Part shown: positions 21,402-22,047 of the stretch, one piece after another
Numbering within the stretch: the stretch's first letter is position 1
How the letters are laid out: each line of letters opens with the position of its first letter
Virus record (IMG/VR): IMGVR_UViG_2619619134_000005
Source of the DNA: a virus
Lineage: Duplodnaviria > Heunggongvirae > Uroviricota > Caudoviricetes
Strand: one strand, 5' to 3'
Length of the DNA stretch: 22,047 bases
The notes under the pieces: generated by a model
What the model saw: only the letters and a program-made list of their open reading frames with translations
Told to the model about the DNA's origin: nothing
The model's database searches: none
Made by a program: the position numbers and the translations under genes

Positions 21402-21653
21402 TCAGGGTGCAGAAGGACTAAAGATAAACGTTTTCTTCACGCCTTTACACGGCCTGTCCTTCTCAAATCGCCATTTTGCCATCGCCTTTACAACCTGCTC
21501 ATCAAACAGATGGTGCGGCTCTGAACGAATAAACTCAATTCGGGTGACAGTACCATCAGCACCAATATCAAACCTCACATCAACCCGTCCCTTTATATAA
21601 TTTGCCGCTGCATAGGCCGGATATTGTGGTAATGCCTTAACCAACTGTCGGGG
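21402..21653 (-). pseudogene. TonB C-terminal-domain-like gene fragment, 5' end truncated by IS1
   Basis: Translation ...LPQYPAYAAANYIKGRVDVRFDIGADGTVTRIEFIRSEPHHLFDEQVVKAMAKWRFEKDRP... matches the conserved TonB C-terminal domain pattern (PQYPxxA...G.V.V.FD....G.V........P...F...V..AM..WR.E). The frame is open upstream straight into the IS1 terminal repeat with no ATG; the track M is a TTG. Confidence 0.5.
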
Positions 21654-22047
21654 GGTAATGACTCCAACTTATTGATAGTGTTTTATGTTCAGATAATGCC
21701 CGATGACTTTGTCATGCAGCTCCACCGATTTTGAGAACGACAGCGACTTCCGTCCCAGCCGTGCCAGGTGCTGCCTCAGATTCAGGTTATGCCGCTCAAT
21801 TCGCTGCGTATATCGCTTGCTGATTACGTGCAGCTTTCCCTTCAGGCGGGATTCATACAGCGGCCAGCCATCCGTCATCCATATCACCACGTCAAAGGGT
21901 GACAGCAGGCTCATAAGACGCCCCAGCGTCGCCATAGTGCGTTCACCGAATACGTGCGCAACAACCGTCTTCCGGAGCCTGTCATACGCGTAAAACAGCC
22001 AGCGCTGGCGCGATTTAGCCCCGACATAGCCCCACTGTTCGTCCATT
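21654..22047 (-). mobile_element. IS1 insertion sequence, partial (one terminal inverted repeat plus the 3' part of insB; continues beyond the window)
   Basis: Terminal repeat GGTAATGACTCCAACTTATTGATAGTG at 21654-21680 and downstream sequence match IS1 as I recall it essentially base for base. Confidence 0.95.
21669..22047 (-). CDS. insB: IS1 transposase InsB, C-terminal part (5' end beyond window)
   Basis: Translation ...[124 protein letters not shown] matches InsB. The M at the start of the track ORF is simply the first codon in the window. Confidence 0.9.

Follow-up and report, generated by a model that had tools for sequence, protein, structure and literature searches.

A TonB-domain gene fragment at the edge of a lambdoid prophage window is very probably a recent IS1-made pseudogene of a predicted phage lipoprotein

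Results

The right-hand end of the window (by which we mean the whole 22,047-nucleotide stretch of viral DNA that was analysed) holds a fragment of a TonB-domain gene, which faces a YlcI/YnfO gene and the packaging module on one side and abuts the end of an IS1 element on the other (Table 1). According to annotation, the YlcI/YnfO gene keeps the same neighbour relationship in relatives where the TonB-domain gene is intact.

Table 1. Positions of the features around the TonB-domain fragment, in window coordinates
Feature	Position	Strand	Basis
terL, after terS	18151-19812		Pfam Terminase_2, TerL_ATPase, TerL_nuclease set for terS/terL
terS, after HNH gene	19809-20372		Pfam Terminase_2, TerL_ATPase, TerL_nuclease set for terS/terL
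HNH endonuclease gene, packaging module	20663..21028	-	Pfam HNH; annotation in relatives
YlcI/YnfO (DUF3950) gene, convergent with TonB fragment	21070..21270	+	Pfam DUF3950 E=4.2e-20, NF041551
3' remnant of 108-aa prophage 'TonB family protein' lipoprotein gene (predicted), codons 26-108 and TGA	21402..21653	-	profiles, identity to intact allele, AF2
TTG, sole start-type codon in the remnant frame before the domain; 80-aa product	21642..21644	-	ORF list
9 bp adjoining IS1 end, CTGTCGGGG; duplication candidate if simple insertion	21645..21653	.	read from sequence
IS1, right-hand part, runs off window end	21654..22047	-	DDE_Tnp_IS1, terminal repeat
insB TAA stop, in frame with TonB fragment	21669..21671	-	translation HYQ*VGVITPRQL..., frame arithmetic

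Further into the window, positions 16150-18087 (minus strand) encode a 645-aa head protein in which Peptidase_S78 prohead protease and Phage_capsid major capsid domains lie in one ORF, a known arrangement in this prophage group. Positions 14574-15938 and 13516-14577, also on the minus strand, carry a portal gene (Phage_portal, 454 aa) and then a 353-aa ORF to which no Pfam domain could clearly be assigned, the two overlapping by ATGA; in TUM14664, the closest relative (99.4% identical), the annotation treats both together as one portal pseudogene with a frameshift. At the left-hand end (1-444) the closest genomes match from position 445 or 475 onward and others from position 3, a pattern that indicates a putative mosaic breakpoint a short way downstream of the Ail/Lom gene (435-1034).

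The fragment consists of 83 codons and a stop (TGA at 21402-21404, minus strand), and the open minus-strand frame 21405-21668 translates as VGVITPRQLVKALPQYPAYAAANYIKGRVDVRFDIGADGTVTRIEFIRSEPHHLFDEQVVKAMAKWRFEKDRPCKGVKKTFIFSPSAP. An earlier reading made from the sequence alone had proposed that a TonB C-terminal domain is encoded here, and profile searches bear this out: Pfam TonB_C (PF03544) scores 56.2 bits against the remnant (gathering score 24.6, E=4.8e-15) and TIGR01352 scores 56 bits (cut-off 27.1), so that both scores exceed the curated cut-offs and the product belongs to the TonB_C domain family. The remnant is also colinear, without gaps, with the solved Salmonella and E. coli TonB C-terminal domains (8RD6, 1U07, 2GSK and 2GRX; E~1e-15), with 38% identity to E. 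coli TonB over 79 residues (TonB 153-231). Its PQYP motif pairs with the PQYP (YP motif) of E. coli TonB, and P26 of the intact protein described below aligns with approximately P153 of TonB, the whole globular domain being kept in the remnant. An AlphaFold2 model, built from a shallow alignment and of only moderate confidence (pLDDT 65), has helices at residues 13-17 and 52-66 and strands at 22-30, 36-45 and 73-78; this is the alpha-beta-beta-alpha-beta order of the TonB_C fold, and the ten best PDB fold matches of the model are all TonB or FusB C-terminal domains. Because profiles, alignment to solved structures and fold matches agree, the TonB-domain signature of the remnant is real.

Membership of the full TonB family is a different matter: full-length TonB models (NCBIfam PRK10819 equivalogs) score 50-73 bits against the remnant, with cut-offs of 265-448, and match it only across their C-terminal 80 positions. 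The remnant has no start codon, no signal peptide and no lipobox. Opposite TonB Q160 and R166, residues which we take to be important for transporter contact, it has Leu and Tyr respectively (window 21624-21635, minus strand, residues LPQYP); the substitutions Q160L and Q160K in TonB suppress mutations in the TonB boxes of BtuB and FhuA.

That IS1 forms the upstream end of the fragment, as the same reading held, was confirmed. The terminal inverted repeat starts at 21654 (plus strand, GGTAATGACTCCAACTTATTGATAGTG), with an end identical to that of annotated IS1 copies at garD and papA, and the minus-strand ORF 21672-22046 matches DDE_Tnp_IS1 (E=2.9e-74) as the C-terminal 125 residues of InsB; InsB transposase and terminal repeat together identify the element as IS1. 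This 3' part of insB (21669-22046, minus strand) is oriented toward the TonB fragment, and the IS1 part in the window is ~98% identical to the IS1 of strain JNEC-KY204. The frame of the fragment had been thought to continue open into IS1 as far as 21680; it does so for 15 nt but is then closed by the insB TAA, which an end at 21680 overruns. IS1 makes target duplications of 9 bp. We rejected a longer IS1 end, suggested by alignments seeming to begin 16 nt before 21654, and attribute these to flank similarity at garD and papA, by chance or target preference. The IS1 flanks at those two loci resemble window 21637-21653 (..AACCAgCTGgCGGtGG against ..AACCAACTGTCGGGG, each followed by GGTAATG), a likeness that could reflect IS1 target preference or could be a product of ranking 72,000 IS1 matches.

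What lay on the other side of the junction can be seen in an intact allele, WP_000828072.1 ('TonB family protein'; strain CFSAN061761), a 327-nt gene for 108 amino acids. Its product (MKRNLPLIILLSSLVMGCTQHKTDM-PRQLVKALPQYP...) opens with an N-terminus, MKRNLPLIILLSSLVMGC, that we read as a lipoprotein signal peptide with lipobox, and is laid out as signal peptide, lipobox cysteine (MKRNLPLIILLSSLVMG-C), 7-residue tether and TonB C-terminal domain. Up to the junction the window has 0 mismatches to CFSAN061761 in 624 nt, the retained 252 nt of the gene being identical. Agreement ends at CTGTCGGGG (21653), after which the intact allele continues with CATATCTG (the ATG of codon 25 and upstream) and the window with the IS1 end GGTAATGAC; this divergence, exactly at 21653/21654, seats IS1 exactly between codons 25 and 26. 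The portion removed is therefore codons 1-25 exactly, which comprise the signal peptide, the lipobox (LVMG-C) and seven residues of the mature protein, and the internal ATG at codon 25 has gone with them. The earlier suggestion of a TonB-like gene decapitated by IS1 is upheld by the intact alleles with their 25 further codons, but the parent was not TonB-sized: it was a gene for a predicted 108-aa lipoprotein, from which only the export and anchor signal has been lost.

The perfect identity of the remnant to intact alleles suggests that the insertion was recent, and we conclude that the fragment is very probably a recent pseudogene, made when IS1 inserted between codons 25 and 26 of the 108-aa prophage gene. 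The part that encodes the domain has thereby been cut off from start codon, export/lipidation signal and upstream region, and in this window the gene therefore cannot give an exported protein.

The parent family is widespread. In a megablast search of 5426 complete E. coli genomes with 21030-21653 as query, the region was found in 1464, was at least 80% covered in at least 413 and was in many cases 100% identical; it also occurs in JLK-2012, Lys8385Vzw and Stx1a-converting phages. The intact gene is present in phage 21, Stx1a phages, JLK-2012 and one Klebsiella phage, where it follows the holin, endolysin and spanin genes and precedes cos/HNH/terS/terL, and in phage 21 it adjoins bor. A TonB-domain gene beside packaging genes had been called unexpected, which this conserved position in the phages and in at least 413 of the 5426 E. 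coli genomes contradicts; the alternative label of 'moron' is a fair one, since this is a conserved phage accessory gene in the classic moron zone of lambdoid phages. Its G+C content is 0.42-0.45, against 0.55-0.62 across the terminase genes. Comparison of the intact allele with that of phage 21 gave a dN/dS of 0.11 overall (0.095 in the domain, 0.18 in the signal), and the intact gene is therefore under purifying selection.

Full-length homologues are 108 to ~112 aa long and, down to 41% identity, all have a signal peptide and a lipobox (VMGC, AVGC or LLGC), the phage 21 type being 71% identical and the Klebsiella phage homologue 41%. The lipobox pattern [LVI][ASTVI][GAS]C ends the signal peptide in the intact homologues (LVMG-C, LAVG-C in the phage 21 type, LLG-C in the Klebsiella phage) and is absent from the window copy, so the intact family are predicted lipoproteins. 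The lipobox cysteine is followed by Thr or Ser. By the Lol sorting rule it is Asp at +2 that keeps a lipoprotein in the inner membrane, and because Thr or Ser stands there instead, the intact protein is predicted to be localised to the outer membrane.

Earlier annotations had already noted the domain in phage 21 (CPT_21_73, 'TonB C-terminal domain protein'); the JLK-2012 homologue is gp70, and the ev017 copy is labelled 'partial tonB-like membrane protein encoded within prophage CP-933N'. In PHROGs, the protein has a full-length match to phrog_1267, 'Rz-like spanin' (category lysis; E=1.7e-42). An i-spanin has an N-terminal transmembrane domain and a coiled coil, and an o-spanin is a small proline-rich lipoprotein whose gene is embedded in or adjacent to Rz; a lysis cassette would have no spanin besides this pair. 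We considered a spanin identity and rejected it: a TonB_C domain makes up the protein, and a separate Rz/Rz1 is annotated upstream in both phage 21 and JLK-2012. For these reasons the phrog_1267 label is probably a positional mis-annotation, one that might be copied into the annotation of new phages.

In E. coli, alleles that have decayed or become fused are numerous (P0028, P0008, P0010, P0015, P0022 and P0031 in the protein collection); P0028, from a 4.6-Mb contig, starts like an endolysin and runs on in frame into the final 48 residues of the TonB_C protein. As far as can be read from such alleles, they point to apparently frequent deletions between the lysis genes and cos.

How the window copy came by its IS1 end is less clear than the fact that it did so, as the window ends inside IS1. 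In a simple insertion the layout beyond would be the IS1 left end (...GTTGGCAGCATCACC), then CTGTCGGGG, then CATATCTGTTTTATG... / CATATCTGTTTTATGTTGCG... (the 5' 75 nt of the gene), with the spanin and lysozyme genes beyond. This reciprocal junction (IS1 left end, 6-12 nt and the 5' part of the gene) was searched for and was found in none of the collections, and the exact IS1/gene junction of the window is absent from IMG/VR, from metagenome contigs, from species-representative genomes and from all 5426 complete genomes of E. coli. In the assembly GCA_050368625.1 one contig, of 1735 bp, starts at window-equivalent 21645, with the same 80-aa ORF called on it; its start is consistent with a repeat at or beside the same place and is silent on the other side.

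In JNEC-KY204 (NZ_AP045180.1, 5002-5769 of locus L004) this 327-bp gene has been hit by IS1 independently: there it keeps its 5' 135 nt and meets the left end of the element at window-equivalent 21615, which is 39 bp away from the junction in the window; IS1 strikes the TonB_C lipoprotein gene repeatedly. The opposite end of the JNEC-KY204 element borders on part of a porin gene and on tail genes, and the head and packaging genes are gone, from which it follows that a deletion occurred there. The junction in the window might likewise have been left by an IS1-mediated deletion or inversion in which the prophage lost its lysis and regulatory half; in favour of this stand the JNEC-KY204 case and the absence of the junction from the complete genomes, so that its partner is not visible, and no feature of the window tells against it. 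We regard this as a serious contender, to which we give a substantial minority of the probability. Simple insertion and IS1-mediated rearrangement are indistinguishable here because the other end of IS1 lies beyond the window and the junction is in no collection; the gene is a pseudogene either way.

The sequence-only reading had also raised the possibility that IS1 drives expression of the orphan domain. Transcripts of insA/insB would leave the element, and a start at the TTG or read-through of the insB stop would yield a cytoplasmic TonB_C domain or an InsB-TonB_C fusion, still active. It is in keeping with this that insB and the fragment lie on one strand with the insB stop in the fragment's frame, that gene finders call the 80-aa ORF from the TTG, and that the remnant has kept 100% identity to intact alleles; such identity is, however, equally expected of a recent insertion. 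Some RNA could arise by read-through from the co-oriented insAB, but the stop of insB is TAA, and by frame arithmetic a fusion is blocked by it. The TTG (21644) is 9 nt from the junction, the 20 nt upstream of it are GAGTCATTACCCCCCGACAG, the nearest GGAG is 17 nt away and there is no Shine-Dalgarno 5-13 nt upstream. Three further start-type codons in the open frame, GTG 21578, ATG 21482 and GTG 21440, lie inside the domain, and the earlier observation that no ATG precedes the domain stands, that at 21482 being the frame's only one. No promoter-like site facing the fragment was found on the minus strand of 21000-22047, no terminator-like site between the convergent TonB fragment and YlcI/YnfO gene, and no RNA family in the window by Rfam; upstream of the intact gene there is a promoter-like ATGACC-16-TAGAAT, which matches the consensus at chance level only. 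A domain made without a signal peptide could not, moreover, reach TonB boxes in the periplasm. An expressed and active orphan domain is consequently very improbable and unlikely to matter, and with an InsB fusion blocked, a TTG that lacks a Shine-Dalgarno, no promoter-like site and the export signal lost, the remnant is best called a pseudogene.

Nor does the fragment look like a short protein of ~80 aa that exists naturally by itself and has its own start, upstream of which IS1 merely landed. An 84-aa 'MPRQLVK...' form exists in the protein collection (cluster P0005), but the contig that carries it has the full in-frame 108-aa ORF with signal peptide, so that the short form is a gene-caller's choice of start and not a homologue that begins naturally at this point; all annotated intact copies are at least 108 aa with a lipobox, and the internal ATG that such a start would use has been taken out of the window by IS1. 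We consider this reading negligible. The same may be said of a remnant of the host's own tonB, or a marker of the right-hand boundary between prophage and chromosome, for which the odds are vanishingly small: the best NCBIfam matches are indeed enterobacterial TonB models, but at their C-terminal positions only and with whole-protein scores all far below the cut-offs, identity to E. coli TonB 153-231 is only 38%, and the gene lies inside complete phage genomes, always between the lysis cassette and cos/HNH/terminase, with lysis genes continuing beyond it.

Discussion

For this window our finding has small significance: it adds one more IS1-inactivated accessory gene to an E. coli-type lambdoid prophage, in an already annotated family. 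The remnant should be annotated as a pseudogene, and not as an 80-aa 'TonB family protein', and it is usable as a strain marker. The parent family is of more interest than the window copy, as it is widespread, is under purifying selection and occupies a moron position in phages that include the long-studied phage 21; no functional study of a phage TonB-like lipoprotein was found in the literature that we searched.

We tentatively propose, while thinking it rather doubtful, that the intact family, whose genes lie behind the lysis genes in phage 21, Stx1a phages and many prophages of E. coli and Klebsiella, might serve the phage as a decoy that mimics the C-terminal domain of host TonB, placed under the outer membrane and occupying the TonB boxes of FhuA, BtuB, FepA and Cir. 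A TonB C-terminal domain on a 7-residue tether would be located where the TonB boxes of FhuA, BtuB and FepA emerge, and it could compete with host TonB for the TonB boxes of TonB-dependent transporters; such competition might block TonB-dependent phages and colicins, which would amount to superinfection exclusion. Within the TonB domain, strand beta3 is the one that the TonB box pairs with. Irreversible adsorption of phage T1 requires TonB (PMC11658791), and overproduced periplasmic TonB domain inhibits TonB-dependent transport, as PMC9841981 relates in its account of Howard et al. 2001. Given the location of the tether, this pairing, the need of T1 for TonB and the inhibition by periplasmic TonB domain, a decoy would be the most economical hypothesis.

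Against it stand the Leu and Tyr at the positions equivalent to Q160 and R166, and the 'Rz-like spanin' label of PHROGs. A decoy mechanism of this type was not found in the searched literature, and PADLOC gave no significant match to an anti-phage defence model, the one weak match (E=0.038) being to an unrelated cyclase model. The C-terminus of the tail-tip protein J is 99.6% identical to that of VT1-Sakai J and 56% to that of lambda J, which is not decisive for or against a TonB-dependent receptor. If the decoy proposal is true, the window copy would be an inactivated example of it; the verdict that this copy is a pseudogene does not need it.

The nearest comparison is with WP_000828072.1 and its phage homologues (phage 21 CPT_21_73, JLK-2012 gp70 and ev017), which share with the window the TonB_C domain and the neighbours YlcI/YnfO, HNH, terS and terL; where these have codons 1-25 and an upstream region, the window copy has an IS1 end instead. 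In this it resembles the IS1 insertion pseudogenes of E. coli and Shigella prophages, with an IS1 end abutting a truncated gene and independent events in one gene, and differs from them in that its exact junction is in none of the searched collections.

With the E. coli TonB C-terminal domain (1U07, 2GSK, 2GRX; residues ~153-231) the likeness extends over the colinear, ungapped 38% identity, the PQYP motif, the order of elements and the fold matches. The phage protein, however, has neither the N-terminal membrane anchor nor the proline-rich spacer of TonB, and carries a putative lipid anchor and a 7-residue tether in their place; lacking anchor and spacer, it would therefore not couple to ExbB/ExbD.

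Phages are known to act on TonB-dependent receptors from the periplasmic side, as T5 Llp and Cor of phi80, N15 and HK022 are outer-membrane lipoproteins that inactivate such a receptor; that Llp binds FhuA is stated in a preprint (bioRxiv 10.64898/2026.03.26.714494). Between these proteins and the intact family we found no sequence relationship, the fold of the latter being TonB_C. The likeness, as a proposal only, is that of small phage lipoproteins predicted to lie in the inner leaflet of the outer membrane, and a decoy of the kind suggested here would be analogous in outcome to T5 Llp.
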